Assembly (NCBI GenBank): GCA_043824495.1
Contig: JBDRSV010000024.1
Coordinates: 91,056 to 155,055, forward strand
Length of the DNA: 64,000 nt
From: Candidatus Aenigmatarchaeota archaeon
GTDB taxonomy: Archaea > Aenigmatarchaeota > Aenigmatarchaeia > QMZP01
Direction: 5' to 3'
The notes beneath the pieces were generated by a model that saw only the letters and a program-made list of their open reading frames with translations, had not been told where the DNA came from and made no database searches. A program made the translations under genes and the position numbers. Shown in pieces: positions 28,943 to 49,560 of this stretch (the stretch's first letter is position 1; every line of letters starts with the position of its first letter).

Positions 28943-28983
28943 TCAACGGCTTGGAAACCAAGTCAAATCAACGACAATGAAAG

Positions 28984-30233: not shown

Positions 30234-30294
30234 TTGTTACAGGGGATCCTGACCAATTCGGTTGGGATCCCTTCAACTTGACAATTAACGTAAC

Positions 30295-32557: not shown

Positions 32558-32757
32558 GTCCGCGACATCACCAACCAATCCCGGGAACAAGACAGTTCAA
32601 TCTGTTCCCGGGTTCCAAATGAGTTCATGTGGTTTGATTTCTTGACTAGGTGGGCTCATTTGGAATTGAGTTGTAGTAGAACCATAACCCATTCACGACC
32701 TTTTGTCGACCCTGTCTGATATCAGTTCAGGGAAGAATCTAAAGGAAGGAGAATTCA

Positions 32758-34749
32758 ATGCATTCACTCCAAGAAGTAAAAGAACACATCAAGACAACGA
32801 TGTGCAAAGCGGTTCAAGTGAATCGCTGGATGATGTGGATCGCGCTCGTCGTCATATGTATTGTGGCGATTGAGTTGTTCGTTTGGTTGCCTTCACTGCC
32901 AGAAGAGGCGCAAGACGTCCTTTCCCCATTCATAGAAGGTGGAAACAGGAATGCAGGCACGTTATTACTCCACTTCTTCTGTTTCATGGGTGCATTGGTG
33001 TCTATCTTCTTCAAAATCTTCGGTCCGATCACAAGATCTTATGATAATACACTTTTCTGGGAACTCCATCTGGGTGGAACAAAAAGGATCGGATTCCGCC
33101 TGGGTGACTGGCCTACTGGTGTGTTCATTGAAGCGGCAGACGTTCTCAGTGATTTACCAGCGAATGTCAGGAAAAGAATTCCGTGCACCCAGTATGCTGT
33201 TTCTCGAATTAAAAGCGTAACGGAATTCGACGACAGCGGTAGAGCCATCGTCCCACGGGATGAGAGTGTGTCTTCTGTGAGATTCGCCACAGTGGATGAT
33301 GGTCGACCGGGAACGCTCGACTTGGATAGGGTGTTCTCCTGGGCGCATAAGTACATCCGAGGCTATTATATCTGCCTGGCCTTTACATGTCTGTTCCTGG
33401 CTTGGCCGGTGATAACCGGCTACTCGATCGCGAGCTTCATGCACGACCTCCCGGTCCAGATCCACGACATCGCTGTTGACCCATCTCAGAATTCGACGAA
33501 AGTAATCGTCAGTTCTGATCGCAATGTCCGGTATGACTCAAGAATCGAGGTTGCAGATGACTGTGTCTGCTCCCGATTCATTCTGAACATATACCCGGCA
33601 AAGTGTGATTTCCTGGAGGAGATCTTTGCCAGTGACTATGTAATGAGAGGGTATTATGGGGCTCGAACCAACACCGGGCAGCTCTCCGAAGCAACTGGAT
33701 GGAATGGTGTCAGGCAAATCAACATCAGACAAGTTGGTGACACCATCAAGATTGTACTCGGCCTGAAAGATATGGTTGAGTACGCAATGAGTCGCTCGTC
33801 AGAGCACGGCACAAAGGATCTGGTCGTTGGTCTGGACACGCCAGTCGAGTCCAAACAGACATCGGGCGAATATTGGACCGCGAACAAGTTCGCAGATCAG
33901 TACGAAGTTCCTGACAACAATGCCCGTCGCGAGTCATCGTGTGGTGAATGGAAGTCGTTCGTCAGATTTGTATCTGCGGATAGTAACAACGTATACTTCT
34001 CTGCCAGATACGGTGGAGTGTACAGAGTGGATATGAATGGATGGATTGACACGATCGTCCCAAACAACGAGGTTGATTACTACCACACGCCAGTGAGTAG
34101 CGGTAATAAACTCGCTGGCATCCATGATGGGAATGATCTCTGTATTGTGGATATGGATACCAGAAAGGTCAAGAACGTCACCCATGGACAAATATGGGAC
34201 GTCGATTGGGTCTCGGACACCGGACTCGTGTTCTGGAGAGATCTTGATGGTGTCTGTTACTACTCCCTCTCTGCGGACTCGTCTTGGTCTTTGAACAAAA
34301 AGGCCAAATTCCCATCTGTGTGTGGGGATAAGATATTCTACCTCACACACTTACGCACCCATCGGGATGAGTGGGATTCCACACTAATCTGGGAGATGAG
34401 CCTTGACGGGTCTTCCAGAACCGTAGCTAGGTTGAAGGGAGGCTACTCACACCTGAGTATGTCTTCGGACTGCTCAATTGCAGTTCTGAAAGAGCCGTAT
34501 AGTTCTGACCGCACGTGGGTCAATAGAATCAAAACATTCTCCTTCAACGACTGCATTATGACAACACTGACGGAGTGTGGTGAGTCTCCAAGGATCACTA
34601 CAGACAATCGAATTGTTTATGTCAAGTTGTATCCTGTGGAGGGGCGTGGGGATTTCAACTCGAACTCAGAAGTCCGGATCATGGATCTGGACGGCAGAAA
34701 CGACACCTTGATTGTCAACAGAGAGGAACTCCGGAAGTTTCCGATGTAA
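32758..34749 (+). CDS. Membrane protein with a large C-terminal beta-propeller-like extracytoplasmic domain (hypothetical)
   Basis: N-terminal TM helices, 663 aa. Repetitive W/D/G-rich blade-like segments. The upstream leader is conserved with the 28241 gene. Confidence 0.55.
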   Translation: MHSLQEVKEHIKTTMCKAVQVNRWMMWIALVVICIVAIELFVWLPSLPEEAQDVLSPFIEGGNRNAGTLLLHFFCFMGALVSIFFKIFGPITRSYDNTLFWELHLGGTKRIGFRLGDWPTGVFIEAADVLSDLPANVRKRIPCTQYAVSRIKSVTEFDDSGRAIVPRDESVSSVRFATVDDGRPGTLDLDRVFSWAHKYIRGYYICLAFTCLFLAWPVITGYSIASFMHDLPVQIHDIAVDPSQNSTKVIVSSDRNVRYDSRIEVADDCVCSRFILNIYPAKCDFLEEIFASDYVMRGYYGARTNTGQLSEATGWNGVRQINIRQVGDTIKIVLGLKDMVEYAMSRSSEHGTKDLVVGLDTPVESKQTSGEYWTANKFADQYEVPDNNARRESSCGEWKSFVRFVSADSNNVYFSARYGGVYRVDMNGWIDTIVPNNEVDYYHTPVSSGNKLAGIHDGNDLCIVDMDTRKVKNVTHGQIWDVDWVSDTGLVFWRDLDGVCYYSLSADSSWSLNKKAKFPSVCGDKIFYLTHLRTHRDEWDSTLIWEMSLDGSSRTVARLKGGYSHLSMSSDCSIAVLKEPYSSDRTWVNRIKTFSFNDCIMTTLTECGESPRITTDNRIVYVKLYPVEGRGDFNSNSEVRIMDLDGRNDTLIVNREELRKFPM

Positions 34750-34830
34750 GCGTGTAGTTATCATTCACACCCCGCCTGGATTCAATTCCAGGCGGGGTTG
34801 ATCATGAAATAAAGAGAAGGGGAGTGTACC

Positions 34831-35835
34831 ATGATAAAAATGTTTGGTAAACTGCTCTGCGGAGTTGCCATGGTTGTAGGCGGGTTGATCGCAGTGCTAG
34901 CGACGATCACTTTCTTCGCAGTCATTGGGAACATGGTAATCGATACTTACAAAATTGGCATGCATTTCTCTCCGTTGTTACCGACAGCCTTCATCAGCCT
35001 TTGGGTCGCCGCCGTCATGCTTTGGATTACCACCCTCGGCGCGAAAGGCCTCGGATGGTCGGTATCATGCCATTTGAAATTCAACATCGGTTACGGTTCC
35101 ATGCTGCTGGGAATCGTCGGCGTAATTGTGATCCTGGGATACTACACATATCTCTTCACCTTTGCTGACATCCCAGGACAACTGGTTGTCCTCAGTATTG
35201 ACGGTATGGAGACGTTCAGTCGGGTGGAAGTTCGTCTCATGAAAATCATGGATTTGGTGCCTCTACTATTCGCATCCATTTGCACCGGATTCACCGGACT
35301 GGCTCTCTGGTGGGGACGAATACAATCAATCCGGTTTCCGTTCTCCCGTTGGTTCGGAATCGCTGTCGCGATGATTCTTGTTATTGTCATGGCAGTGCCT
35401 GTTCTTGGTCAGGCCGATTCCACAGGCTTCACTGAGGCCAAGACCCATCTTTGTGGGATGCAGATGAATTATGCTGAATATTTCGGTGAGTTGTTCGCGG
35501 CGCGTTTCGCATCCCGGGAACTTGATATCAATATCTTCGATGCCGATGAAGAGTGGATGTGGAGAATGGTTGATTCAACATTCTACCGAAGGGATACACT
35601 CTTTGCTGTCAGAGACGGGTTCTCGTCGGTATTTAATATGGCCGAAGAGAAGGCCGAGCTTGTGGCCGCGACTGATCTGGCGAGAATTGTCGGGAAAATC
35701 AGGGGAATCCCGGAAGGTGAACGCGTTCCTTTAAGGTATTGTTTCCGTGGGGGACAGTTCATCAAGAAAGATACAAACAGAGGTTACCATGCGGTTGTAG
35801 TGCAGATTCTTCCGCTGTCTGAGAATCTGGAGTGA
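34831..35835 (+). CDS. Multi-pass membrane protein (hypothetical)
   Basis: At least six hydrophobic helices. SD GAAGGGGAG. Confidence 0.5.
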   Translation: MIKMFGKLLCGVAMVVGGLIAVLATITFFAVIGNMVIDTYKIGMHFSPLLPTAFISLWVAAVMLWITTLGAKGLGWSVSCHLKFNIGYGSMLLGIVGVIVILGYYTYLFTFADIPGQLVVLSIDGMETFSRVEVRLMKIMDLVPLLFASICTGFTGLALWWGRIQSIRFPFSRWFGIAVAMILVIVMAVPVLGQADSTGFTEAKTHLCGMQMNYAEYFGELFAARFASRELDINIFDADEEWMWRMVDSTFYRRDTLFAVRDGFSSVFNMAEEKAELVAATDLARIVGKIRGIPEGERVPLRYCFRGGQFIKKDTNRGYHAVVVQILPLSENLE

Positions 35836-35973
35836 AACCAACATTATCCTTTCAACATTTGATGGAGGACGGGTCATGAAACTAGTCTTAAATCGTAGGC
35901 ATCTTATAGATCCCGCCAGTGTCATTGGGCCACGCGTGAACTGGTTGTTCTCCTGAATGGCCAAGAGGTTCAG

Positions 35974-36222
35974 GTGCGTCCTATCGACCAGACGATAATT
36001 CTGATCGGACGCGATCCGGAATGTGACGTAATACTCGATAATCGCGCCGTCGACTTCTTCCATGCTCACATTGATTTCGGCGAGAATTTTGTAGTAATTG
36101 ACAACGTGTCACTCAACGGCACGTTTGTCAACGGAGAAAAGGTCGAGAAAGCGGTTCTCCGTCCTGGTGATGTGATCACAATAGCCAGGTATGAGATTCA
36201 CATCCGGTCCCTCCGGAAGTAG
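35974..36222 (+). CDS. FHA-domain protein, N-terminally truncated or frameshifted
   Basis: GRDPECDVILDNRAVDFFHAHIDF...DNVSLNGTFVNGEKV...PGDVITIARYEI is the FHA consensus. The FHA-like sequence continues upstream (ELVVLLNGQEVQV) with no start codon. MKLVLNRR... sits in a different frame at 35876-35953. Confidence 0.6.
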   Translation: MRPIDQTIILIGRDPECDVILDNRAVDFFHAHIDFGENFVVIDNVSLNGTFVNGEKVEKAVLRPGDVITIARYEIHIRSLRK

Positions 36223-36286
36223 ACGACGCGATGGTAGTCTTGTTCCAATTCCGTACAGGTGTTTACAAAATCTGTGCGGGATTTGT

Positions 36287-36308
36287 ATTGTCTAATTAAA
36301 GGGATATA
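36287..36308 (-). repeat. Junction motif copy 4 (ATTGTCTAATTAAAGGGATATA), at the right edge of a GC-rich block
   Basis: Inverse orientation, the same variant as copy 1. An 8-bp stem (CCGTACAG...CTGTGCGG) precedes it on the GC side. Confidence 0.6.
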
Positions 36309-36390
36309 AGAGTTAAGGCTTTGCACAAAAACTCTGTTTTACACAAAAACTGTGCTTAGCCTAAAAAATTCAAGAAAAAGGAGGTGAAGC

Positions 36391-36609
36391 GTGAAAAAGG
36401 TTAAAAGTTGGAAATCTAAAGATAATAATATGATGATTACTCCAAGATTAGTGTTAATGTTCATTTTTGGACTTATTGCTATTTATGGTCTTTTTGCTGC
36501 TCTTAGTCCAGAAAGGTATATAATTCCTCTAGTTTCAGGTGAATTTGCACAAATTATTGGGTTTATTATATTTATCATAGCAGGTTATTTTTTTGTTAGG
36601 TTTAGATAA
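36391..36609 (+). CDS. Small membrane protein (hypothetical)
   Basis: Two TM helices, with an RBS-like GGAGGTGAAG upstream. Confidence 0.3.
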   Translation: MKKVKSWKSKDNNMMITPRLVLMFIFGLIAIYGLFAALSPERYIIPLVSGEFAQIIGFIIFIIAGYFFVRFR

Positions 36610-36874
36610 TATGGACAAAATACAACTTAAAAAGAATAAGATAGATCTGGAAGCTAGATATATAATGCAAGAAAGAAATGCTATTTTATTGGCCCTCCCT
36701 GCTTTACCATTAACTTCTTTTAACTTGGGTTTGTTTGTAGGTCAACTTGATCCATTAGTCTCTGCATTCATTGCTTTGGTTGTTTTTGAATATCTTTATT
36801 TTATTAAGCTTCATTTTGATCGAAAATTAAAGGATAAAATAAAAGAAATTGATGATCTGATGAGAATTACCTAA
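36593..36874 (+). CDS. Small membrane protein (hypothetical)
   Basis: Overlaps the preceding ORF, and has a hydrophobic core. Confidence 0.3.
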   Translation: MLGLDNMDKIQLKKNKIDLEARYIMQERNAILLALPALPLTSFNLGLFVGQLDPLVSAFIALVVFEYLYFIKLHFDRKLKDKIKEIDDLMRIT

Positions 36875-36935
36875 GGCGAATTCTGACCAAAAACCCTTGC
36901 ATTGATTTATATTCCTTTCCAACTAATTCTTTCCT

Positions 36936-37589
36936 ATGACAAAACCAATCGCACTATCGGCAAGTAGCATAAGACTTTTCCTAGAGTGCCCTCGATGCTT
37001 CTGGCTGCATATAAACAAGAAGGTAAGAAGGCCTTCGGGAGCTTTCCCATCGTTGCCAGCGGGTATGGACAAGATACTCAAGATACACTTTGATGAGTAC
37101 AGGGAGAAAGGCAAGATACCAAAAGAGCTAGAAGGCAAATTCAGCGGCAAGCTTTTTGGTGATACAGAAATATTGGGTGTGTGGCGTAACAACAGAAAAG
37201 GGCTAAGACATACAGACAAAAAGAGTGGCATTATTCTCATGGGAGCGTTAGATGACCTCTTTGTCACCAATAATGGACAGTTTGCACCATTGGACTTCAA
37301 AACAAGAGGCTATCCCCTCAAGGAAGACACACATGAACACTATCAGCACCAGATGGACATTTACTCATATCTTCTAGAAAAGAACAACATGAAGACTGCA
37401 GGCTATGCAATACTCATATTCTACCATCCGAAACGTGTTACAAGCACATGCAATGTTGAGTTTAATGCAGACCCTTTGAAGGTGAAGACCAGCATAAAGG
37501 ACGGTGAGAAGATATTTTTGGATGCTGTAAAATGCCTTTCGGGGAAAGAGCCCAATCCTGGCAAGGACTGTGGGTTTTGTAGATGGTGA
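36936..37589 (+). CDS. Cas4-like/RecB-family PD-(D/E)xK nuclease with an Fe-S cluster cysteine set
   Basis: N-terminal CPRC. Motif II GALDDL, motif III LDFKT, QhxxY (HQMDIYSYLL), and C-terminal C...CGFC. No CRISPR array nearby. Confidence 0.65.
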   Translation: MTKPIALSASSIRLFLECPRCFWLHINKKVRRPSGAFPSLPAGMDKILKIHFDEYREKGKIPKELEGKFSGKLFGDTEILGVWRNNRKGLRHTDKKSGIILMGALDDLFVTNNGQFAPLDFKTRGYPLKEDTHEHYQHQMDIYSYLLEKNNMKTAGYAILIFYHPKRVTSTCNVEFNADPLKVKTSIKDGEKIFLDAVKCLSGKEPNPGKDCGFCRW

Positions 37590-37696
37590 TTCAAATCTAT
37601 TTTCAGTGTCAAACAAACCTATTTAAATAAAACAGACCACTTTCTATTGGAACTAATTAAATATATACCAACTGAAACCAATAATTAATAGTTCAT

Positions 37697-38329
37697 ATGC
37701 TTATGGACGAACGAAAACCAGAAATAAAAATTGTAGATAGGTCATTCTTACTTTACCTTCTATCGAAGGCCCAAGAAGCTAAAGCAGAATTAGGTAGAAC
37801 CTTATTACAGAAATTTGTTTTCGCTACTGAGGTTACTACGAAAGGAAAGGGTGGTGGAGGGCTAAATTATTATATTTATAAATGGAAACATGGTCCATTT
37901 AGCAAAGAGCTTGCACAAGATAGAGAAGTTCTTCTAAAAAACAATTTAATAACAGATAGTAATGAACTTACAAAAGAAGGGCATAAAATATTATCATATA
38001 TTAATCCCATTGTTGATAAAGATTCGGAATCTAAAGCCGTAATAAGTGTAATAACTAAAACTCTTTCTGGGAGAAGCTTGTCTCATATATTAGAAATTAT
38101 TTATAAGTCCGATTTTGATCTCCCAAATGGGAAAAGAATGAAAATAAAGACAATACCAGAGGGGACTCCAATGATTTTCAGATCGGAAGAACGAGATGTT
38201 AAAAACAGATCTCTCTTCACAGAATCTACGATAGAAACACTGGCCATAATGATGAATAAGGAAAAACATTCTTCTCTTAAGAAAGCCATGTCAATGCCGA
38301 TGATAGGAGAATTCAAATATGATATATGA
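37697..38329 (+). CDS. Hypothetical protein
   Basis: Complete 210-aa ORF. Its stop overlaps the next gene, so it is in an operon with it. Confidence 0.45.
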   Translation: MLMDERKPEIKIVDRSFLLYLLSKAQEAKAELGRTLLQKFVFATEVTTKGKGGGGLNYYIYKWKHGPFSKELAQDREVLLKNNLITDSNELTKEGHKILSYINPIVDKDSESKAVISVITKTLSGRSLSHILEIIYKSDFDLPNGKRMKIKTIPEGTPMIFRSEERDVKNRSLFTESTIETLAIMMNKEKHSSLKKAMSMPMIGEFKYDI

Positions 38330-38724
38330 TAAAAAAAAGATTTCTTGAAACTAGCGGATTTCGTGAATTCTTCCAAAGTTTGAGCGATTTCGACAAAAAA
38401 AATGTTAAAAAAATTATAGAAAAAATAAGAGAACGTGTGGAGTATAATATACTTAAACCAGATAGTTTTCTTCGCTATGAGTTTGCAGGCACGCGGAAAG
38501 AAAGAAGAGAAAGACTTAGAGTATTCTATCGCGTGTGTGAGGAATGCCGAAGACTAGGTCATGATAAAATCGAAGGCAGATGTCACGATTGCCCAAGAGA
38601 AGACGATATCATTTGTCTTATATGGGGAGACGATATTCGAGACGATGAAACATATAAAGATAAAACAATGCTTGACAGACCAGGAGCTAAAATAGATAAG
38701 AGGTCAAATGAATTCTGTGAATGA
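38326..38724 (+). CDS. Hypothetical protein with an internal C4 zinc ribbon (possible RelE-like core)
   Basis: RYEFAG...RVFYRV flanks CEECRRLGHDKIEGRCHDCP. The RelE-like resemblance is weak. Confidence 0.35.
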   Translation: MIKKRFLETSGFREFFQSLSDFDKKNVKKIIEKIRERVEYNILKPDSFLRYEFAGTRKERRERLRVFYRVCEECRRLGHDKIEGRCHDCPREDDIICLIWGDDIRDDETYKDKTMLDRPGAKIDKRSNEFCE

Positions 38725-38761
38725 ATTAATTTTTTATTTTACGGCGATTTTGGCCTAAAAC

Positions 38762-38995
38762 CTATCTATCAACAGTCTCTACCCACGGCGCTTTTCTCTC
38801 AGGCAGTTTACTTCCTTTGATCACTATCTTGAATTTTAGTGGATTAGTAATATGCTTTCTGAATTCGTCTTTCCTCATTTCTGTCAAGTGTCTGACTATC
38901 TCAACAACATTGAGTCTGTATTCTTCGCTGAATCCTTCTTTTGGTGGTTTAGGGTCCTTTATTCTAATGTCTTTTAGAATTATATCTACCATCAT
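38762..38995 (-). CDS. Hypothetical small protein
   Basis: Complete 77-aa ORF. Confidence 0.3.
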   Translation of the reverse strand: MMVDIILKDIRIKDPKPPKEGFSEEYRLNVVEIVRHLTEMRKDEFRKHITNPLKFKIVIKGSKLPERKAPWVETVDR

Positions 38996-39018
38996 TATAT
39001 TTGGAGCAAAGAAATAAA

Positions 39019-39324
39019 TTAGCTTTCAATTCGCGTGGGGAGCCCCGATTCTCTGAGGCGTTTTATACGTTCCTCATGAGTCATTTTACCTGTGCCTCTT
39101 TCTATAGAGTCCTTTATTTCTGTTTTAGATGCTTTGCATTCAGGACATTTGGTATGGACATCGAGCTTTTCTGGATGATATTTTGGTATCAATTTACTTC
39201 TTCCTGCAGCATGAGCTCTCCCTTCGCTATACCAATCAAGTGTTTTGGTAATATCAATATCCGCCTTTTTACAGAATGGGCACCTGATACTTTCTCTTGT
39301 AAATTCAGGTTTTGATCTTGTCAT
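39019..39324 (-). CDS. Zinc-ribbon protein (hypothetical), downstream of the RM gene
   Basis: CPFCKK...CPECK C4 zinc ribbon. It is 5 bp from the RM ORF. Confidence 0.4.
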   Translation of the reverse strand: MTRSKPEFTRESIRCPFCKKADIDITKTLDWYSEGRAHAAGRSKLIPKYHPEKLDVHTKCPECKASKTEIKDSIERGTGKMTHEERIKRLRESGLPTRIES

Positions 39325-39329
39325 ATATC

Positions 39330-42056
39330 TTATATTTTCTCTATTATTTTCTTCTCTTCTTCTGTTATCCCGTATATTCTATATATATATGAATCTATTT
39401 CTTTGTCAATTCTTTGTATCTCATTTTCTATATGTACTCTTCTATCCGTTTTTTTGTCACCTATCTCATTTAAACTGTTATTCATAGAAATTATTTTATC
39501 AACTAAGTTAATGACATCTTTCTCTGTTTCTTTACTAACTAGTTTAATAGGAAATTTCTTCGTATTAGCAATTAGTATTTTTTGGAATAGCCTTTTTGAA
39601 GGATCTAAATATTTCTCTTTATGGTAAAAAGTCATTAGCTTTGAGTTTAAAATTGCTAGAATATATTTAATTTGATCAGAACTACCGTTCTTGGGTATTA
39701 TATTAAATCCTATTTGTGTGTTATATAACTCCTTTTCGGTATATCCAGCGTATATTTTTGGAGGTTTACCACTGATAATCTGTCTCACGACTATACGAGG
39801 TTTTAAGAAAAATCTCTGTTCTCTGGGAGCGCCTAGCCATTTCCCATAACTAATATATTCTGTTTGGTTCCATTTTATACCATATCTTATAATGCCTGCT
39901 CCAGATAAGAGGGGTTTGAAAGTTTCATTCTTTTTTGTTTCTGAATGAAAAACTTTATTTTTTATTTGATCTTGTGTATGACCTTTGTATTTATCATAAG
40001 GTGTTAATCCTAGCGAGAAATCGCACAAATCTATCAAAGGTTTTGTACCTTCTTCAATCTTTTTAATTATTTTACTTATAGTAGGATTTCGAGATATATT
40101 GATAATGTTATCACGACTCCAGTCTAGTTGATTAAATGTTGTGTATGTATTGCAATTTTCTTTGTCTATGAAACTTATCTTTTCTTCACTAGGATAAATC
40201 AAAAGTTCACATTTAGTACTTTTTGTTGGCTTCTTTTTTTGGTATATGAGTATTATGGTCTCTACTTTAGCCTTCTCAAAAACATTATCAGGAAGTCTCA
40301 CAATCTTTTTAAGAGTCGCTTCGTTTAATAGTAATTTTCTTATTTTTGAATATGATTGATTATATAGGATTGAATTCGGTATAATAAAACCGAAGTATCC
40401 TCCATTCTTTAGTAGACGGAAAGATTTTTCAACAAAAACTGAGTACAGATTCATTCTATTTTCTACTGTTTCATATGCCGAAAATAAATATTTAACAATT
40501 AGAGGATCTAGCTGTTTTATATCTACATACGGTGGATTACCAATTATAATATCAAAGGAACCTCCTTCAAAATCGTCTATCCATTTAAAAGAGTCTAATC
40601 CAGCAACCTCTTCAGCATCTATTAAACTGTTTCCATGACATATATGAGTATCAATCTCTGTGGGTAGTTTTCTTCCCTTTTCTGCAGCCTTCAGTAATAA
40701 ATTCAGTTTTGTTATTTCTACTGCTTTATTGTCTAAGTCCACACCGTAAAAGTTATTCTTAAGCATGTGTGTTTTAACTGAATAAATTCCCTGATAATCT
40801 AATCTCATTTGTTTTGCTTCTGGTTTTTGCATCATACTATTCAACAAATGATCAAAAGACTTTATTAAGAATGAACCAGAACCACACGCAGGGTCTAATA
40901 TTTTAATTTCTAATGGCTTCGTTTTTTTATCTGTTATTAACTCTCCTAAAGTGTTTCTAATAATATAATCTACTACATAAGTCGGTGTGTAATAAATGCC
41001 TTGTTCCTTTCTATGTAGTCTCGAATCTCTTAATTGAGCTTTCCCTGATTTCTTTTGATCAAGAATTAGACCCAAGTATTGCTCATAAACTTGACCTAGA
41101 ACATCAGCATCTATCCAGTCAAAATTATAAATGTATGTTTTGTCTTTCGATTCGTATAAATAATAAATTAAATTTTTAATTATAGATCCGTTGATATTGA
41201 TTGTATCACAATCATTATCTCTCGATATAGCAAACAAACCACTGTTATATACATCATCATATGTTTTGAATATTTCCTTCAGTTTTGTGTAAGCTTTACT
41301 ATCATGTAGGTGTTTTATATCGCTAAGTATAACACCATCAGGATTTATGTTTATGTCTTCACAGCGTCGAATAAATATAAGTCTGTCTAGAATTCTCTGG
41401 ACTATATCATCCTTCTCATCAATAGAATACTTTTTTGCATAGGTTTTCTCAATGTCGCTAGCAATTAAACTTCTTATAAGCATCAAATCATTAAGCAGGG
41501 TTTTATCGATAGAAACCCTTTTCTTCAATCTACCTTCATCTTCAGCTTTTTTAAGGATAATATTTTCTTCAAAACTGTTTTTTGATAAGAAAAGCAAATC
41601 TTCAAAGCTGTTGATATAATCTTCTGGGGTATTGAAAACTCGGAATTTATTTCTTATAGAATTTTCTTCCTCTACACAAAATATTCTTGTTTCTTCAAAG
41701 TTGGTTGATACTGCAAAAGGTACTCTCTTTGATAGTGCATATGATATTACTTGTTTATCCGCTTCTCTATCTAAAGATACACCAACCTTTTTGACTTCAA
41801 GAAAGAAAACAGTTCTGCCATTAATCTTAAAGGCGTAATCTGCGCGTCCTCTTTGACTTCCTCTATGTGCTTGAGACTGTTTATCAAAATCATTTCGCTC
41901 CCAACCAAGCAACTGAAAAAGAGGTTCAATTAATCTAGTTTCTGTATCAGCTTCTGACAGTTTTTTATATGATTCTTTGTCAGCGTTGAATTCGTTAATT
42001 AATTTTTGAATTTCCTCCTTAATGATCTCTTTATCCATATAATTAGAATGAAACAA
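39330..42056 (-). CDS. Single-chain restriction-modification enzyme (Type IIL/IIG, MmeI-like): PD-ExK nuclease, then a gamma-class N6-adenine methyltransferase, then a target-recognition domain
   Basis: The N-terminus has D...FFLEVKK (PD-ExK). Methyltransferase motif I is ILDPACGSGSFL and motif IV is IIGNPPY, in gamma-class order. 908 aa. Confidence 0.75.
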   Translation of the reverse strand: MFHSNYMDKEIIKEEIQKLINEFNADKESYKKLSEADTETRLIEPLFQLLGWERNDFDKQSQAHRGSQRGRADYAFKINGRTVFFLEVKKVGVSLDREADKQVISYALSKRVPFAVSTNFEETRIFCVEEENSIRNKFRVFNTPEDYINSFEDLLFLSKNSFEENIILKKAEDEGRLKKRVSIDKTLLNDLMLIRSLIASDIEKTYAKKYSIDEKDDIVQRILDRLIFIRRCEDININPDGVILSDIKHLHDSKAYTKLKEIFKTYDDVYNSGLFAISRDNDCDTININGSIIKNLIYYLYESKDKTYIYNFDWIDADVLGQVYEQYLGLILDQKKSGKAQLRDSRLHRKEQGIYYTPTYVVDYIIRNTLGELITDKKTKPLEIKILDPACGSGSFLIKSFDHLLNSMMQKPEAKQMRLDYQGIYSVKTHMLKNNFYGVDLDNKAVEITKLNLLLKAAEKGRKLPTEIDTHICHGNSLIDAEEVAGLDSFKWIDDFEGGSFDIIIGNPPYVDIKQLDPLIVKYLFSAYETVENRMNLYSVFVEKSFRLLKNGGYFGFIIPNSILYNQSYSKIRKLLLNEATLKKIVRLPDNVFEKAKVETIILIYQKKKPTKSTKCELLIYPSEEKISFIDKENCNTYTTFNQLDWSRDNIINISRNPTISKIIKKIEEGTKPLIDLCDFSLGLTPYDKYKGHTQDQIKNKVFHSETKKNETFKPLLSGAGIIRYGIKWNQTEYISYGKWLGAPREQRFFLKPRIVVRQIISGKPPKIYAGYTEKELYNTQIGFNIIPKNGSSDQIKYILAILNSKLMTFYHKEKYLDPSKRLFQKILIANTKKFPIKLVSKETEKDVINLVDKIISMNNSLNEIGDKKTDRRVHIENEIQRIDKEIDSYIYRIYGITEEEKKIIEKI

Positions 42057-42193
42057 ATTCTAATAAGCTTTATCTTCACCAATAATTTCTGTTTCTCCTT
42101 TTCTGCCGCTGTACAAGTTCTGGTTCAGTGCGGTTCAACTTAGTTCAACTGAACTGTAGAAAACTTTATAAGCCCTATAAACAAGGATAATGT

Positions 42194-43213
42194 ATGCAAA
42201 AAAAATATTCAGCAGATTGGCTTGAAAAAGCTGAGATTGTGAAAAGAAAAATAAAGGACCTACAACTGGATCCAGAAAATGTTAGGTTTAGCCATATACC
42301 ACAAATTCATAAGAGCACAAAAAACATAGAAGAAATAATGAAGGAGGATGACGGCATCTTTGACCTTTATGATCAAATACTTTCTTCAAATGGTATTATA
42401 GAGCCTATTGTAATTGATTCAAATAATATGGTCATCGAGGGTAATCGAAGATTAACTTGTTTGAGGCTCTTGGATGACCAGGCAAAAAAAGGAGAATTAG
42501 ATGATGAAGGCATATCTAGAACCCAGTTTGAAGAGGTGCAATGCAGACTCTTGCCTAAAATAGATGACGAAACAAGGGATCTTTTCCTTGCAACAATACA
42601 TGTGAAAGGCAAGAAGCCTTGGAAAAGATTTAATAAAGCCAAGCATATATACAGGCTTAACAGAATGCACAAAATAAGTTATGACGAAATAGCAAGACTT
42701 CTTGGGATGGGAAAAGCCACCGTCCAGAGAAATGTTTCTGTTTATGTGGAGGTCAGTAAATATCACACAAGATTCTCTGACGATAAAGAATGGTTTAAGA
42801 AATTCATGCTCTATGAGCAGTTTTTTATGAGAAAAGATTTAAGAGATTTTAGAGAAGATCAAGAAAACATAAACATTTTTGCTAAATGGGTTTATTCTGG
42901 AAAATTTCAAAATCATAAAGATATTAGAAGATTATATGAAGTCCTAAATGATGAGGACTCAAAAAATGAATTTGAAAAGACAAATATGGAGAACGCCATA
43001 AAAACATTGGAAACCAAGAATCCTGAGCTCGTAGACGCTGACTTTAAGAAAATAAACGACACTATAAGTGTTTTACAAGAAATTTCAAGAGCTAAGCTCA
43101 ATGATATTGTCTCAAACCCAGAGAAAATAAAACTATTAAATTCGCTTGAGCATGAACTGAAAAACTTACTGATTGATATAGAAAGCAGAAAAGACAGCTT
43201 AAGGAAAAAATAA
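42194..43213 (+). CDS. ParB/Srx-like nuclease-domain protein with an HTH
   Basis: IEPIVIDSNNMVIEGNRRLTCLRLL is the ParB-like N-terminal domain motif, and SYDEIARLLGMGKATVQRN is an HTH. It is divergent from the RM gene, with a palindromic operator-like site between them. Confidence 0.6.
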   Translation: MQKKYSADWLEKAEIVKRKIKDLQLDPENVRFSHIPQIHKSTKNIEEIMKEDDGIFDLYDQILSSNGIIEPIVIDSNNMVIEGNRRLTCLRLLDDQAKKGELDDEGISRTQFEEVQCRLLPKIDDETRDLFLATIHVKGKKPWKRFNKAKHIYRLNRMHKISYDEIARLLGMGKATVQRNVSVYVEVSKYHTRFSDDKEWFKKFMLYEQFFMRKDLRDFREDQENINIFAKWVYSGKFQNHKDIRRLYEVLNDEDSKNEFEKTNMENAIKTLETKNPELVDADFKKINDTISVLQEISRAKLNDIVSNPEKIKLLNSLEHELKNLLIDIESRKDSLRKK

Positions 43214-43371
43214 TGACCAGGGTGGTGGAAGGGGCGACTGACGGGTGGCCCTCCATAACTTCCTTTGTCAGGAAGCGAACACGGTAAAACGTGCCCTGGT
43301 CTTCATAATCTTAATGTTTGATTAATATTTATATGTTATTTATATATTCTTTTTCTATCTTATTAACTAAT

Positions 43372-43590
43372 CTATAGTTTCCAATAAGTAACTCCACCTC
43401 TGGTTTTACCTCTAGATAAGTACCCGCGTTTAAATAATCTCTTAAGTGTTTTATCTGCACTATGCCAACTCATTTTCGTTCTTTTCGCTATCTTATTTGT
43501 TGTTATGGGTCTCTGGGTTCTTCTAAGAAGATTAAGTATAGCAGATTCCTTTGGACTGAATCTTGAATGTCCGTTTACCATTTTAATCAC
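43372..43590 (-). CDS. Small winged-HTH DNA-binding protein
   Basis: SAILNLLRRTQRPITTNKIAKRTKMSWHSADKTLKRLFKRGYL is a wHTH pattern. Confidence 0.45.
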   Translation of the reverse strand: MIKMVNGHSRFSPKESAILNLLRRTQRPITTNKIAKRTKMSWHSADKTLKRLFKRGYLSRGKTRGGVTYWKL

Positions 43591-43849
43591 GCCTTATCAA
43601 CTTGAAGCTGACTTTAATATCTTTCTTGTCCTTAAGTGGAATTGGAGTTTCTACAGTATACTCTAAAAGATCTTCTTCAGAGAATTTTATTGCATCCGAT
43701 ATCTCTCTTGGAAACCTCACGAAAAACAAGTCTCGTGAGTCCTTGCTTATTTTTGCTGATTTTGTTATAATCTCTTTATCATATGGGAGCTCTTTTTCCA
43801 GTGATCTCTTTTTTTCAGGTTTTTCCCATTGTATGTTTTTTCTTCCCAT
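43583..43849 (-). CDS. Hypothetical protein
   Basis: Its stop overlaps the start of the downstream wHTH gene (43372-43590). Confidence 0.35.
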   Translation of the reverse strand: MGRKNIQWEKPEKKRSLEKELPYDKEIITKSAKISKDSRDLFFVRFPREISDAIKFSEEDLLEYTVETPIPLKDKKDIKVSFKLIRRD

Positions 43850-44027
43850 ACTTAATATATTGCATGTGTTCTTTATAAAAGTTATGGTGTATTTTTAAAG
43901 CTTTGTATGCAAAATGCAAACCTTTATAAGGATAAACATTCTAAATTACATATGTAACTTACAAACTCATAAAATATAAGGAGGTGATAACGAGACTGGC
44001 GATAAGGTATAACTTCGCCAGTCTCTC

Positions 44028-45038
44028 ATGCTTATGAAAACGAAACAACTTACTTTAGATCGAGACTGGAGCCAATATAACTTGGCCCAAACACAGGAGA
44101 AACTTCTATTCATGAGAATACTGAGTGATGCCGTTAATTCCATGAATATAGAATATACATACAAAGGCAACGGAAGACCAAGCATAGGCATAGAGGACAT
44201 GATAAAAGTCCTCGTGATAAAGGTTTTCAACGGCTTCTCGCAGAGGAGGACAATACCAGATTTGTATATGGCTAAAGGTTTAGGCTACATACCTGAAGTC
44301 CCACACTTCAATTCCATAAGCAACTACTTCAACAGCACTGAATTGACTTATTATCTTGAGCAGCTCTACAGGATATTGGCTATGCCATTCATTCCTATAG
44401 AACAGTACTTTGCTATCGATTCTACTGGTTTTGGTAAATACAATACCAATTGGACTGCCAGCAAATATAAAAACGCAAGCATGAGAAGCTTCAACAAGCT
44501 GCATATAATATGCGGAGTGCGGACAAACATAATTGTGATAGCTAAAGTGACAGATGCACACCAACACGATTCTCTTCAGTTTCCTAAGATGCTTAAGGAG
44601 ACATGCAAAATATTCACAGTAAAAGAGATCTCTGCAGACAAAGGATATCTAGCACTCTATAATGTGAATGCAGCTAAAGAATTAGGCGTAGTACCCTACA
44701 TAATGCCCAAGAAGAACACAAAGTTATATTCCAAAAAGAGATGGGTGGATGGAGAGGCATGGGATAGAATGGTACTCATGTGGAGACATAAAGAGGAAGA
44801 ATTCAGAAAACACTACCATCTGAGATCGAATGTTGAGAGCAGCTTCTCAATGATGAAGAGGAAGTTTCTTCCTTTCATAAGGAGTAAGAACCCTATTGCA
44901 CAGAAGAATGAAATTCTGGCTAAGGTTGCTTGTCACAATATATCCGTTCTTGTCCACTCAATCTTTGAATTGGGTTTAAACATAGATTTTAAAAATATAG
45001 ATTCAACAGATGAAAGGAGGGAATATTATGACGCCTGA
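44028..45038 (+). CDS. IS4/IS5-superfamily DDE transposase (DDE_Tnp_1)
   Basis: AIDSTG (D), ISADKGY (D), HYHLRSNVESSFSMMKRKF (the Y-x2-R-x3-E-x6-K signature). A hairpin GAGACTGGCGA...TCGCCAGTCTC lies just upstream. Confidence 0.7.
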   Translation: MLMKTKQLTLDRDWSQYNLAQTQEKLLFMRILSDAVNSMNIEYTYKGNGRPSIGIEDMIKVLVIKVFNGFSQRRTIPDLYMAKGLGYIPEVPHFNSISNYFNSTELTYYLEQLYRILAMPFIPIEQYFAIDSTGFGKYNTNWTASKYKNASMRSFNKLHIICGVRTNIIVIAKVTDAHQHDSLQFPKMLKETCKIFTVKEISADKGYLALYNVNAAKELGVVPYIMPKKNTKLYSKKRWVDGEAWDRMVLMWRHKEEEFRKHYHLRSNVESSFSMMKRKFLPFIRSKNPIAQKNEILAKVACHNISVLVHSIFELGLNIDFKNIDSTDERREYYDA

Positions 45039-45444
45039 AGAAGGGATGAAAATATTAAACCAGTATCTAAGTGATATGAATAAATTAAGGGAGAAAAGAT
45101 ATTATGAGGGTAAAGATGAATTAAACTTACTTGATAGAAAAATAAAAACTTTCATAAATAGAGTTTTCCCAGATTATGAAGAAAGGCAGAAAGACTATTA
45201 TAGAACTGTACATGCTTGGTTTATTGCTACAATGCATGAAGAGACAGAAGAAGAAAAACAAACGGATTACATGAATCAAATAAGAAAAATGACACTATTT
45301 GTCAATACTTTGTTGGATGAATTACAAGTTTTTGGGTTGGCATCAGAAAAATTTGGACCAACAAAAACTGAGACAGAAAAAGAAATAAGCGGTGGAATTC
45401 CAGGCATTCTAAAAGGTAAATACAAACGAACTAAAAGCGAATAG
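45010..45444 (+). CDS. Hypothetical protein
   Basis: ORF overlapping the 3' end of the transposase gene. Confidence 0.35.
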   Translation: MKGGNIMTPEEGMKILNQYLSDMNKLREKRYYEGKDELNLLDRKIKTFINRVFPDYEERQKDYYRTVHAWFIATMHEETEEEKQTDYMNQIRKMTLFVNTLLDELQVFGLASEKFGPTKTETEKEISGGIPGILKGKYKRTKSE

Positions 45445-45513
45445 TAAAAGGTTTTTGTGCAAAGCCAAGAGTTAAACATAAACTATAAATAAAAGAAGAT
45501 ACAAGAAGTCCAC

Positions 45514-46281
45514 ATGGAACCAATTATATGTTTTGGGCAACAGCCTAATGGAATATTTCCTAAGAATTTCTTTGTGGCTAAGATAGATTCAGCTAGAAAG
45601 CTTCAGCGGGAAATTGGTGGAAAAATAATATGGTTCTGTCACGATTCAGATCATGATCACAGAGAAACAAAAACAAGAATAGAATCTAATATGCATAAAG
45701 AAGGTTTTGTTGATCTTAACTTCTCGATTAAGAACAAAACCCAAAGGAAATATACTCCTTTATACCTAAAAGAAATAACTCCGGAATGGAAAGAAGAAAC
45801 AAGAAAAATTCTAGAAAGAATTGTTTCACTAGAATTGCTTATAATATTCTATTCTGTGAATGAAACAAGAGTAGCGGATTTCTGTATAGAGATGTATAAG
45901 AGAATGGGATTACTTGATGGTATAGATATTGTAAGAAGTAGTGATCCTAGGTTTAGAGAAGAAGCAGAGAAGCCAGAAGAAGAATTCATAGATGTGGAAT
46001 ATGATGGAGAAATAGTAAGAGCTAGGTGTATGAAAGATGGGTTATATTTACATGAAGGCGGAGATAGTTACAAGAAGATGGCGGATATGTGTGATTATTC
46101 AAAGAAACAAGTCTCCGCTGCTAGAGATTCTAGGTTTCCCTGGATGCAATCTGTAATTAAAGCAACTCATTATGTGTATGGAATGTCAGAGAAAGAATAT
46201 ATAAAGAAACAACAAATAGAGATGGTTCCTAGAGATGAAATAGATAAGAAAGATTTTGCATTTATTCAATTACTTAAATAA
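45514..46281 (+). CDS. Hypothetical protein
   Basis: Complete 255-aa ORF, convergent with the PIG-L deacetylase gene. Confidence 0.4.
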   Translation: MEPIICFGQQPNGIFPKNFFVAKIDSARKLQREIGGKIIWFCHDSDHDHRETKTRIESNMHKEGFVDLNFSIKNKTQRKYTPLYLKEITPEWKEETRKILERIVSLELLIIFYSVNETRVADFCIEMYKRMGLLDGIDIVRSSDPRFREEAEKPEEEFIDVEYDGEIVRARCMKDGLYLHEGGDSYKKMADMCDYSKKQVSAARDSRFPWMQSVIKATHYVYGMSEKEYIKKQQIEMVPRDEIDKKDFAFIQLLK

Positions 46282-47034: not shown

Positions 47035-49560
47035 TTATTTTATGATATGAATTGCAACTGATTTTTCATATCCTTTTATGAAATCTTCTACCATGTCTCT
47101 TGCTGTAGTGTCTGAATGTTGTATTGGTGGATGCTTCATGAAATAAGCTGATGGACCTTCTAAGTAGCCTCCGATACCTCTATCTTTTGCTATTTTTGCA
47201 CAGCGAATACCATCTATTACTACACCAGCAGAATTTGGAGAATCTTCTACAGAAAGTCTGAGTTCTAAATTAAGAGGAACATCTCCGAATTTTCTTCCTT
47301 CCATTCTAATGAAACAAATCTTGTTATCTTTCTGCCATGGAACATAATCACTTGGTCCAATATGAATATTTTCTGGTTCTAGTGGTATTGGTAATTGAGA
47401 CTGAACAGCTTCTGTCTTGCTGATTTTTTTGCTCTTGAGTCTTGATCTCTCAAGCATGTTTAGGAAATCTGTGTTATGAACTAATATGTTTGAACAAATA
47501 AACCGTTCAAATGGTTTTGTGCTTATGTCATAAACATACACATCTTTTAATTTTATTTTTCTAATGTTTTTTATCTTAAGGAAGCGAGTATCGCCTGTAC
47601 ATAATTGTTTAATTTTTTCTCTTTCAAACTCACTTTTAACTTTATCCAATTGAGAAAGAACTATATGAGTTCTAATTGATCCGTGTTTGTACCACGTTGT
47701 TGATTTTATTTTCCATTTTTTCAAAAGTTTTATATTTGGTATTCGATGTGTTCCATAACGTTTTAATTTATTATTAGTATTGAGCATTGCCTTTTTCTTG
47801 TAATCTTGTAAAAATCCTACTTTATTTATGAACAATTCCATATCAATTTTTGATGATATTAATCCATGCCAAGCATACCCTAGTTTGCTGTTATATGCAG
47901 TTCTAGTGCTACTATATCTTTCCTTGAAAATTGTTGAATTTATTCCTAATCTCAAAAACAATGTCTGTATATCATTCAAAAGGTCACGAGAAACAGATGT
48001 CCATCTTATCTGTTTTCCTGTAACACCACCATCACCACTTAAATAACCTCTTAAAACTAATGATATTTGTCTATCTGATAAATTAAAAATCCATTCTGGT
48101 ATCCGTTTTGTATAAGCATTTCCCCCTAAACCAATAGCTAACTTAAATATTTTAGACAATATTTTTGAATGAATCCTTACACTAATACCGTCATTTCTAA
48201 CGCTATATCCAATATTAAATCTATCTGTTAAACTATCTATAAGGTACATACACTCAGGTTCAGCACCGCATGCAATTTCTATATTAGATGAACCTTCTCT
48301 ATCATAATTACCATCTGCAATCCATAAACCAACCAACTGTAAAAGATCATCTGTAATTGGGAATTTAACAGGAATTTTTATTTCAGGATGACCACGGACA
48401 TTTATATGACCGTCTGATACACCATCAACTAATAATTTATTACTATATGGACTTAGATCTATACTTTCAATTTCTTCTGATTTAGCATGTGGTAACACTC
48501 TAGGAACAGCAATATACGTTTCATTTCCTTTTAGTATTTTTACAGGGATTTCATTTAATATACCGTCATCGCTTAATGTAAAGACATTATGATCCCCTGT
48601 GATTTTTATTGTCCTACCTTCTTCGGTAGTTATTTCATAAATAGGTTCAGATACCTTATGTCGTATTAGTGCATTTATATCTGATAGGACAACGTTATAA
48701 TTATCATTTATAGTAAAACATCGCATATTTTCATTAATTTCTTTCATAATTACAATGTCTTTTCCATCAGATCTTTTCTTACCATAAAGCTCCAAATAAG
48801 AGTCTATCAAATCTCCAATTTTAACCCGCTTTAATTGATTGTTTATAACTACAGGAACCTCCTGATCTCCTGTTACACTGTTCCCCCCAGTATTCAATTG
48901 ATATGTCCTATCAATCTTTATTCCTCTATCAGAGAATAACTTTGTTAAAACTCTATGTGTAATTGTTGCACCTAATTGACTCTTAATATCATCACCAATA
49001 ATAGGAATTCCTTTTTCCTTGAACTTATCACCCCATTCAGGATTTGATGCAATGAAAACAGGCATACAGTTAATGAATCCAACACCTGCATCTAAACAAG
49101 CTTGTGCATAGAACTTAGTTGCTTCTTCACTTCCAACAGGCATGTAATTAATTAGCACATCAGCCTGACTATCCTTCAACACTTGAACAACATCCACATT
49201 TTTTTTCCCTGATTTTTTAAATCTATTATCTTCAGGATAATTATTCATATGATCTGCTACACCATCTAACACAGGTCCCATCTGAACTTCCACTCCAATG
49301 TGAGGAACATCCTTATAAAATATAGTAGTGTTGTTAGGCTTTGCGAATATTGCTTCCGACAAATCTTTATCTACCTTTCTCTCATCAATATCAAAAGCAG
49401 CTACTGGTTTAATATCAGATATTTTATATTCACCTAGAATATTATGCATTAGACCTGATACTGGTTTACTAGAATCTACATCTTTGTAATAGAATAATCC
49501 CTGAACAAGACTAGAACAACAATTACCAACTCCAGCAAATGCAACCTTTATTTCTGTCAT
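47035..49560 (-). CDS. ino1: myo-Inositol-1-phosphate synthase containing an intein
   Basis: The N-terminus [17 protein letters not shown] and the exteins ...YQLNTGGN / [20 protein letters not shown] match MIPS. A 469-aa insert carries LAGLIDADG motifs. Confidence 0.85.
47473..48879 (-). mobile_element. Intein with a LAGLIDADG homing endonuclease domain, inside ino1
   Basis: Starts SVTGDQEV (block A-like) after GGN. LAGLIDADG-type motifs LVGLWIADG and LRGYLSGDG. Ends ...NILVHN followed by Thr (+1). Confidence 0.7.

Follow-up and report, generated by a model that had tools for sequence, protein, structure and literature searches.

A probable family of IS903-like unit transposons with defence cargo and a constant ParB/KorB-like gene in DPANN archaea

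Elements of the IS5/IS903 group are insertion sequences (IS) of about 1,050 bp that generate 9-bp direct repeats (PMC3281130); for IS903B the inverted repeats are GGCTTTGTTGAATAAATC and the direct repeat is 9 bp long (PMC10569121). Tn7-like elements have been described with defence cargo (Benler et al. 2021, PMC8649781), PD-lambda-5 joins a ParB-like protein to a D12 methylase in a compacted restriction-modification (RM) and abortive infection system (Vassallo et al. 2022, PMC9519451), and the solo-Cas4 nucleases of DPANN archaea are reported to be mostly vertically inherited (Hudaiberdiev et al. 2017, PMC5704561). Here we analyse a 64-kb stretch of DNA, referred to in its whole length as the window, from a metagenome-assembled genome of a Candidatus Aenigmatarchaeota archaeon (DPANN). 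With a probability of roughly 0.85, positions 36317-45466 are a single 9,150-bp DNA transposon, a member of a DPANN family of IS903-group-like (IS5-family) unit transposons, in which the ParB/KorB-like protein G would be the regulator and the other genes, lettered A to K in Table 1, independent cargo modules. A sequence-only reading of this DNA had described positions 36936-45444 as a defence and mobile-DNA island. Mobile DNA and defence genes are both present; they form one bounded transposon rather than a loose island, and the coordinates cover its interior.

The outer limits of the element are set by perfect 16-bp terminal inverted repeats (TIRs), GGCTTTGCACAAAAAC, which match in inverted orientation at 16/16 positions, and by a perfect 9-bp target-site duplication (TSD), AAGAGTTAA. 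The exact TIR core GGCTTTGCACA occurs at just two sites in the window, 36317 (+) and 45456-45466 (-), and the reconstructed empty site reads ...TTAAAGGGATAT AAGAGTTAA ACATAAACTATAAAT... The ends were found by pairing the flank beyond the transposase gene J with the flanks beyond G and its downstream genes, and this wider pairing brought out an inverted repeat of 18-21 nt (GGCTTTGCACAATAA...) in several loci. TIRs flanking J alone, sought in 12 loci, were rejected: the matches of 8-14 nt were at chance level, and the true ends enclose G and the cargo. All open reading frames (ORFs) listed in the sequence-only reading lie where it had placed them, and most of its labels hold on family scans; I, K, two small membrane-protein ORFs, the TIRs and the TSD were absent from its list. 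No CRISPR array, tRNA or Rfam match was found in the window.

Relatives of the element are present in other DPANN genomes. We fetched 93 loci for comparison with the window proteins and scanned 1.04 Mb of fetched loci with a position-weight matrix (PWM) of the TIR ends. A low threshold returned 38 matches; a higher one resolved 10 TIR-bounded elements of 2.7-9.15 kb, of which the window element (W) is the largest. Perfect 9/9 TSDs flank eight of the ten (W, L018, L020, L021/L039, L044, L048/L049, L051 and L053), and the element L019 sits at a contig edge. A homolog of G is found in 10/10 elements, a homolog of J in 9/10 and at least one methylase (one or two) in 9/10. Passenger genes vary from element to element, the methylase or restriction endonuclease (REase) partner being D12, Dcm with Vsr, N6_N4 or Type IIG, and Type II REases are recognisable as cargo in L019 (MvaI_BcnI, 1.8e-48) and L020 (RE_HindVP, 1.4e-16). 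Homologs of B, C, D, H, I and K were found in no other G locus compared.

One relative (L051, 7090-9773) is only 2,684 bp long. It has both TIRs, a perfect TSD (GACTTCGAT), G and three small ORFs, with neither transposase nor methylase, and is probably a non-autonomous derivative; it is inserted beside ribosomal-protein-like genes. Carriage of the family on viruses is unsupported by scans of viral contigs, in which G found only distant matches (25-37% identity) and the 120+ matches to a 15-nt end motif were single and unpaired, as expected by chance.

J places these elements close to the IS903 group. When J and nine homologs are aligned with ISEc35, the DDE residues and the Y-2-R-3-E-6-K signature are conserved, with D in A[VI]D[SA]TG, D in [SC]ADK[GA]Y, E in YHxRSNxE and K at +7; judged by these motifs, J looks catalytically intact. 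The transposases of ISEc35 are also its best plasmid matches (91% coverage), and the ends of ISEc35, GGCGTTGTTGCTCAAATC and GGCCTTGTTGATCAAATC, are IS903-like. The window element shares with the IS903 group a DDE transposase with the YREK signature, TIRs of ~16-18 bp beginning GGCTTTG (GGCTTTGTTGAATAAATC in IS903B versus GGCTTTGCACAAAAAC here) and, together with its relatives, a 9-bp target duplication. Unlike IS903 and ISEc35, all the elements carry a ParB/KorB-like gene, their hosts are DPANN archaea and their transposase is ~25% identical to that of ISEc35. They do not count as simple IS, and we place them among the unit transposons or transporter IS. J would bind the TIRs and mobilise the whole unit in the manner of IS903, giving the 9-bp duplications.

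The elements also resemble the defence-cargo transposons of the Tn7-like type and the transporter IS that carry passenger genes, each being a transposase-bounded unit with variable RM, toxin-antitoxin (TA) or other defence cargo. They differ from Tn7-like elements in relying on a single IS5-type DDE enzyme without TnsABC or TniQ, in being far smaller, and in having a ParB-like protein as constant accessory gene. The family is thus new as a variant both of the IS903-type transposon and of the defence-cargo transposon, with the ParB/KorB-like gene as its unusual constant. No description of it was found in the searchable literature, whose coverage is incomplete, so that novelty is not proven.

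Two RNA hairpins were noted near J. In the leader of the window's J (43978-44030), the arms of a perfect stem lie at 43992-44002 and 44015-44025, and the hairpin finishes 2 nt ahead of the ATG; a role as translational brake is plausible. The spacer between J and G in the compact elements contains a different hairpin, GC-rich and conserved, with a CTTCGG loop and compensatory changes in the stem (L020, ~9690-9710; also L021, L022, L044, L047 and L048). Its variants are GGGGACTTCGGTCCCC, GGGGCTTCGGCCCC, GGGCCTTCGGGCCC and GGACCCTTCGGGTTC, and a second GC-rich stem comes after it. It may act as a structured leader, or the element may encode a small RNA here; Rfam gave no match on the L020 spacer, and the hairpin is absent from the window element. 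The small ORFs between J and G have no homology to one another or to H or I.

G is the hallmark gene of the family. It consists of a ParB-type N-terminal domain with an EGNRR motif, a helix-turn-helix (HTH) at residues 150-181 and a helical C-terminal part. An AlphaFold2 (AF2) model based on a 20-sequence alignment has a pLDDT of 89, and its top 32 Foldseek matches in the PDB (E < 0.01) are all Noc, ParB (including CTP-bound ParB), KorB, pNOB8 ParB or Spo0J, aligned over the N-terminal and HTH domains (~220-300 columns, E down to 5e-5). There is no nuclease structure among the significant matches. The sequence-only reading had labelled G a ParB/Srx-like nuclease-domain protein with an HTH; the ParB likeness and the HTH stand, and in place of a nuclease the matches are to DNA-binding structures. 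Profile searches agree with a ParB-like N terminus: PADLOC matched PDC-M38A (1e-19) and the N terminus of PD-Lambda-5_A (3e-8, profile positions ~7-100), PHROG a ParB-like partition protein (1.5e-7), and a sequence profile compared with solved structures gave a marginal match to the Noc HTH (E 0.13). Pfam ParB_N did not match G even at E <= 10.

The predicted fold of G aligns with KorB, ParB and Noc over ~245 columns, and of the GERRxRA CTP-binding box of this family the G-x-R-R part is kept in G, within EGNRRLTCL. Unlike these proteins, G lacks both a ParA partner and a ParB_N match, has a C-terminal helical part that differs, and carries a characteristic motif, HVKGKKPW, which is invariant in the family together with EGNRR. 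Neither the loci annotated with Pfam nor the gene maps of the remaining ones show a ParA-like gene beside G. A palindromic site adjoins promoters that G could control, a feature in which it resembles the repressor KorB.

A protein search found ~40 full-length homologs of G, and 169 metagenome stretches were confirmed by tblastn; the named matches are DPANN archaea. Neighbourhoods were counted in 25 non-redundant G loci with at least 3 kb on either side. In 18 of these, G has a DNA methylase no more than 3 kb away, with two further cases found by eye, and the types are again D12, Dcm with Vsr, N6_N4 and Type IIG. J-like transposases, 39-42% identical to J of the window, adjoin G in at least 10 distinct loci, and in 6/25 an A-like gene is found at most 7 kb from G. 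The adjacency of G and methylase goes beyond co-carriage, being seen in most loci, including loci without TIRs.

Two groups of G loci were compared further. Between L005, L013, L016 and L017 on the one side and L011 and L015 on the other, G and a D12 methylase are conserved in DNA (70-82%), whereas the PD-Lambda-5_A gene that separates them comes in two unrelated types or is missing; the ParB-like effector gene is thus exchanged or lost in situ. In soil metagenomes (L066, L069-L078) a distant clade of G (30-35% identity) is divergent from an N6_N4 methylase; a protein of the canonical ParB_N type (5.6e-30) comes next, along with three conserved genes of no assigned family, and no TIRs were detected.

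Upstream of G lies a candidate operator. The inverted repeat GTTCAACTTAGTTCAACTGAAC (42133-42154) is the sole match to GTTYAR-N6-16-YTRAAC in the 64 kb and belongs to the window's densest cluster of half-sites. The two clades closest to the window supply ten loci in which the pattern RGTTYAR-N13-YTRAACY, an inverted repeat upstream of G, abuts the conserved block GAAACCTTTAAAAAC, which resembles a TFB-recognition element and TATA box (BRE/TATA); a third clade of G has repeated TAAACC-type half-sites at the equivalent position. Of the 44 inverted-repeat sites in 848 kb, 20 fall in the 300 nt that precede a G start, zones that together amount to 3.3% of the DNA scanned, and the strict pattern is found upstream of G in just 20/86 loci. 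In 7/10 elements and in L022 the operator region coincides with the spacer that G shares with a divergent transposase gene; in the window the divergent neighbour across this spacer is the Type IIG gene.

Since a conserved inverted-repeat operator precedes its promoter, we infer that G is the regulator of the element. As a site-specific DNA binder it would occupy the operator before its own promoter, and it would regulate the element, plausibly by timing the expression of transposase, restriction enzyme or both after arrival in a new host. A bolder proposal, which we hold to be tentative and rather unlikely, is that G is a new transposon-encoded ParB/KorB-like nucleotide switch that defines DPANN-wide "defence shuttles": by binding its operator, and possibly by spreading from there, it would silence transposase and incoming restriction enzyme until the DNA of the new host has been methylated, and it would possibly steer insertion to sites beside TATA/BRE promoter elements. 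If true, this switch would be a regulatory or targeting accessory of a kind not known for IS5-family elements.

Several points weigh against the transposon family as we define it, or against the role of G within it. Classical IS903 is ~1.05 kb long with one ORF, whereas these elements span 2.7-9.15 kb and have 3-12 passenger ORFs. J scores 108.1 bits against the NCBIfam NF033579 (IS5) cut-off of 140 and is a distant member at best. The element L047 has no TSD. Movement of the window copy is deduced from its TSD alone, neither an empty site nor a second identical copy being at hand, and the regulatory role proposed for G draws on position and on a conserved cis-element. Finally, in many loci G is present where no TIRs were detected, and at every one of these it adjoins methylases or PD-lambda-5 pairs, so that its primary partner could be the methylase rather than the transposase.

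This last point leads to a serious alternative, possible though on balance doubtful, in which G is primarily associated with methylases or RM systems and independent of transposition. It would be a large analogue of controller proteins, or a third component of PD-lambda-5-like RM modules, and the transposon would carry G-plus-RM cassettes. In the clade-2 loci (L005, L011, L013-L017 and L036) G is directly upstream of PD-Lambda-5_A/B or of D12, and the PWM scan found no TIRs near these loci, nor near the A loci L026 and L027. The pairs beside these DPANN homologs of G are bona fide PD-lambda-5 (PADLOC 1e-116 and 1e-119), and G has its ParB-like N-terminal ~90 residues in common with PD-Lambda-5_A. 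The conservation of G with its methylase while the gene between them comes and goes, and the divergent N6_N4 methylase of the soil clade, point the same way. Unlike PD-lambda-5, G has an HTH in place of the C-terminal two thirds of PD-Lambda-5_A, and there is no D12 methylase in the window. Against the alternative, the 2.7-kb element L051 has TIRs, a perfect TSD and G with neither methylase nor transposase, and 7/10 elements, as well as L022, have the operator region in the spacer that G shares with the transposase gene. The alternative concerns the role of G alone and is compatible with the identification of 36317-45466 as a transposon.

The sequence-only reading had gone further and suggested that the solo Cas4-like nuclease, the ParB-like protein and the neighbouring RM enzyme belong to an uncharacterised multi-gene defence system. 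On this view A, F and G, and perhaps B-C, would be subunits of one system, with Cas4-like and ParB-like effectors or sensors serving the Type IIG enzyme. The counts of A-like genes and methylases near G, and the matches of G to the PADLOC candidate-system profiles PDC-M38A and PD-Lambda-5_A, are in its favour, and A, G, J and methylases do recur together elsewhere. They recur because they are carried jointly on one family of transposons: the co-occurring genes lie between common TIRs, which explains their linkage without a shared defence mechanism. The methylase or REase partner differs from element to element, and G matches DNA-binding ParB/KorB structures with no nuclease among them. The tree of A departs from that of G, A of L021 and of L005 being 82% identical and their G 49%. 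A also occurs without G beside unrelated systems, its family counting at least 623 members against ~170 tblastn-confirmed metagenome stretches for G, and B-C occurs without A; indeed the trio of A with the 210-aa and 132-aa proteins, whose conservation had been proposed as a check, is not conserved, and only B-C recurs (L030). Type IIG enzymes, furthermore, are self-sufficient. The multi-gene system is therefore unsupported, and we regard it as improbable.

Under the transposon reading the cargo would fall into independent modules, F with E (and D), B with C, A, the H-I pair, the two small membrane proteins, and K. The RM and TA cargo would protect the host and would also stabilise the inserted element.

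F has, as far as its motifs tell, the domains of a Type IIG enzyme, with nuclease, gamma-class N6A methylase and target recognition in one chain. Its matches are Eco57I (8e-38), N6_Mtase, TaqI_C (residues 714-837) and an N-terminal HSDR_N, with PADLOC REase_MTase_IIG at 1e-93; the nuclease motif reads D73..E87-x-K89, motif I DPACGSG388 and motif IV NPPY507. The sequence-only reading had called F an MmeI-like single-chain RM enzyme. The single chain holds, and the enzyme is Eco57I/TaqI/CamA-like instead: against PDB sequences its methylase core is nearer to CamA (1.6e-23), BsaXI and TaqI than to MmeI (3.4e-5). Membership of the MmeI family (Type IIL) was rejected, only MmeI_Mtase being matched (5.4e-13) and this match overlapping the stronger Eco57I and N6_Mtase.

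F, E and D form an operon with gaps of 5 nt and 23 nt. The one homolog of E that was found (34% identity, 1.5e-14) is encoded in L026, a locus without G, by an uncalled 100-aa zinc-ribbon ORF (9668-9967, -) that directly follows a gene for a 1024-aa IIG-like methylase; a SNF2/PLD helicase gene is also there. By this shared context E is a predicted conserved partner of Type IIG-like enzymes. Both E and the L026 homolog match Lar_restr_allev (restriction-alleviation protein Lar) weakly, at 0.011 and 4.6e-4, which is below the cut-off. The earlier labels of E as a zinc ribbon, of H as a winged-HTH protein and of J as an IS5-type transposase all hold.

B and C had been described as an operon of a 210-aa and a 132-aa protein, the latter with a C4 zinc ribbon, and both features are borne out by the 4-nt overlap of the genes and four invariant Cys residues in C. 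From sequence and model, B-C is predicted to be a self-contained Panacea-type TA pair of putative antitoxin and toxin. B aligns with a Pfam-verified Panacea protein by BLASTP (7e-9, 26% identity over 162 aa), has itself no Pfam match above filters, and matches PDC-M19A in PADLOC (3.5e-6). A search of 5.8 billion proteins gave one true homolog (P0162, 49% identity), which matches SocA_Panacea weakly and below the cut-off (E 0.042). In the C family, 7/24 members weakly match ParE_toxin. The AF2 model of C has a pLDDT of 79, and its top 21 Foldseek matches in the PDB are all TA toxins of the RelE, ParE, YoeB, YafQ or HigB type; the best, RelE2, has a TMt of 0.79 and a probability of 1.0, with E-values that are borderline (best 1.1e-3).

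The pair recurs in L030, where a B homolog (49%) is followed by a 132-aa C homolog (44%) in an unrelated context. B-C resembles the PanA/RelE-ParE modules in being an overlapping two-gene operon, Panacea-like gene first and RelE/ParE-fold gene second, that is conserved in another genome. It differs from them in that C has a four-Cys zinc ribbon between core strands and B is below the Pfam threshold.

A is, as the sequence-only reading had it, a Cas4/RecB-like nuclease away from CRISPR and cas genes: its sole Pfam match is PDDEXK_1 (4.6e-8), and the window holds neither a CRISPR array nor cas genes. PADLOC Cas4 profiles match weakly and phrog_31195 at 1.7e-44, while A falls below Cas4 membership, with 25.5 bits for TIGR00372 (cas4) against a cut-off of 65 and no PF01930 match. 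The conserved residues are D106, D120-x-K122, Q139..Y143, C18, C21, C212 and C215. The family has at least 623 members, in DPANN archaea and some CPR (Candidate Phyla Radiation) bacteria. A is like the solo-Cas4/PDDEXK_1 proteins of these groups, which are small RecB-like nucleases with Cys ligands and no cas neighbours, widespread and sometimes present in two copies per genome. It is unlike them in being carried inside a transposon and in its Cys pattern, CxxC...CxxC (2+2) rather than the 1+3 of Cas4; its ligand may be Fe-S or Zn.

Another explanation is a defence hotspot on the chromosome with a conserved housekeeping A as its anchor, to which modules were added singly with no movement as a unit. 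In three other genomes A-family genes are indeed found without G and followed at the 3' side by variable defence genes (PycTM with a IIG-like methylase and an SNF2/PLD helicase; Dnd-like; HsdR), and vertical inheritance of solo-Cas4 in DPANN has been reported, as cited above. In the window, however, A lies inside the TIR and TSD limits, 600 nt from the left end, it is cargo also inside the L021/L039 element, and a second copy in the same sample (L112) comes after another TIR-like end. A as a chromosomal anchor gene was dropped for the window on finding it inside the TIRs, and the hotspot is, in our estimate, very improbable. That the element is an assembly artefact, its flanks mis-joined through a repeat in a metagenome bin of mosaic GC content, is more improbable still: GC does step from ~49% to ~36% exactly at the left end and a related TIR occurs elsewhere in the same sample, but mis-joining would not produce the same 9-mer outside both TIRs, and a 48-kb contig in the Logan assembly of run SRR26275509 has identical gene order over both junctions.

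The second copy of A lies at L112 3841-5909, where a TIR-like end (GGCGTTGCACAATAAC) is followed by an HD-domain gene and then by the paralog (81% identity in protein, 77% in DNA), within which the contig ends.

The surroundings of the insertion were also inspected. A 20-nt promoter-like motif, TTGTCTAWTTAAAGGGATAT, has six copies in the window against 0.03 expected, at 3010-3029(+), 15242-15261(-), 17661-17680(-), 20176-20195(-), 36288-36307(+) and 56968-56987(-), and these seem to mark the edges of GC-rich segments. The TSD of the transposon begins immediately after the copy at 36288, and the same arrangement of motif plus 9 nt precedes the TIR-like end of L112, which suggests a preferred insertion point. 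At 23 element ends (W, L003, L018-L021, L028, L040, L044-L054 and L112) the 14-16 nt outside the TSD often read TTTAWAAAGGTTTY, a TATA/BRE-like sequence, in about half of the cases by eye. IS903 is described as having a symmetric AT-rich target preference; the bias could possibly reflect either this or a promoter-proximal preference.

The element is inserted 38 nt upstream of the ATG of a gene for a 255-aa protein (45514-46281), between this gene and the promoter-like motif at 36288, and may thereby have cut the gene off from its promoter. For IS903-group elements an outward promoter in the end has been reported (PMC3281130), and one in the end of this element could compensate.

The archaeal contig has 33% GC and contains segments of 44-58% GC, in the window at 1-3000, 15000-23000, 27000-36300 and 57000-59000. 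Six ORFs tested in 28-36 kb, together with 15316-16422 and 58128-59030, have no Pfam matches; 868-2388 encodes an M32 carboxypeptidase, and 17755-19629 carries a Por_Secre_tail domain (bacterial type IX secretion sorting). These segments are possibly foreign DNA, another type of element or a product of mis-binning. Elsewhere in the window (47035-49560, -), an inositol-1-phosphate synthase gene is split by an intein with a LAGLIDADG domain.

Table 1. Genes and sites of the proposed transposon, in window coordinates
Feature	Coordinates	Strand	Basis or remark
Left TSD copy AAGAGTTAA	36308..36316	.	Same 9-mer immediately outside each TIR
Left TIR GGCTTTGCACAAAAAC	36317..36332	+	16/16 reverse complement of 45451-45466; 9 other elements share ends
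72-aa ORF, small membrane protein with two hydrophobic segments, cargo	36391..36609	+	Hydropathy; no Pfam match
93-aa ORF, small membrane protein with hydrophobic segments, cargo	36593..36874	+	Hydropathy; no Pfam match
A, Cas4-like PD-(D/E)XK nuclease with CxxC...CxxC cluster, 217 aa	36936..37589	+	Belongs to the solo-Cas4-like family of DPANN and CPR; carried as cargo
B, Panacea (SocA)-like putative antitoxin, 210 aa	37697..38329	+	BLASTP to Pfam-verified SocA_Panacea protein
C, RelE/ParE-fold putative toxin with four-Cys zinc-ribbon insert, 132 aa	38326..38724	+	4-nt overlap with B
D, 77-aa ORF, final gene of F-E-D operon	38762..38995	-	No homologs in searched loci
E, 101-aa CxxC..CxxC zinc-ribbon protein	39019..39324	-	C15, C18, C60, C63; 5 nt downstream of F
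F, single-chain Type IIG RM enzyme (predicted), 908 aa	39330..42056	-	PD-ExK nuclease, gamma-class N6A methylase and TaqI_C target-recognition domain
Operator-like GGTTCAR half-site cluster including inverted repeat GTTCAACTTAGTTCAACTGAAC	42122..42154	+	F-G intergenic; window's densest half-site cluster
BRE/TATA-like promoter of G (GAAAACTTTATAAGCC)	42159..42174	+	Conserved block GAAACCTTTAAAAAC ~20-25 nt ahead of ATG in 10 aligned loci
G, ParB/Noc/KorB-like, hallmark gene of the transposon family, 339 aa	42194..43213	+	AF2 model, Foldseek, PADLOC
H, 72-aa winged-HTH protein (Lrs14/MarR-like), cargo	43372..43590	-	Profile matches
I, 88-aa ORF	43583..43849	-	8-nt overlap with H
11-bp perfect-stem hairpin between Shine-Dalgarno-like AAGGAGGTGA and J ATG	43992..44025	+	Sequence and RNAfold, -21.6 kcal/mol
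J, IS5-family (IS903-group-like) DDE transposase, catalytic residues intact	44028..45038	+	DDE_Tnp_1 1.2e-17; NF033579 IS5 5.6e-31
K, 144-aa ORF between J and right end	45010..45444	+	Not seen in other elements
Right TIR (reverse complement = GGCTTTGCACAAAAAC)	45451..45466	-	Pairs with left TIR
Right TSD copy AAGAGTTAA	45467..45475	.	Same 9-mer as left copy

For annotation, the locus is a caution that genes which co-occur within a mobile element should not be taken on that ground for a multi-gene defence system. The genomes of DPANN archaea are tiny and mostly without CRISPR-Cas, and little is known of how they acquire and exchange defence genes. Our findings point to a concrete vehicle, IS903-like transposons with recognisable ends that move complete RM systems, TA pairs and a Cas4-like nuclease among Aenigmarchaeota, Woesearchaeota, Pacearchaeota, Micrarchaeota and Nanoarchaeota. 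With the motif of the 16-bp ends and the G gene as a simple key, such elements can be searched for and their cargo mapped, in parallel to the work on bacterial Tn7-like transposons. As a candidate for a new transposon regulator, the ParB/KorB-like gene, constant in the family and preceded by a conserved operator, is open to testing.

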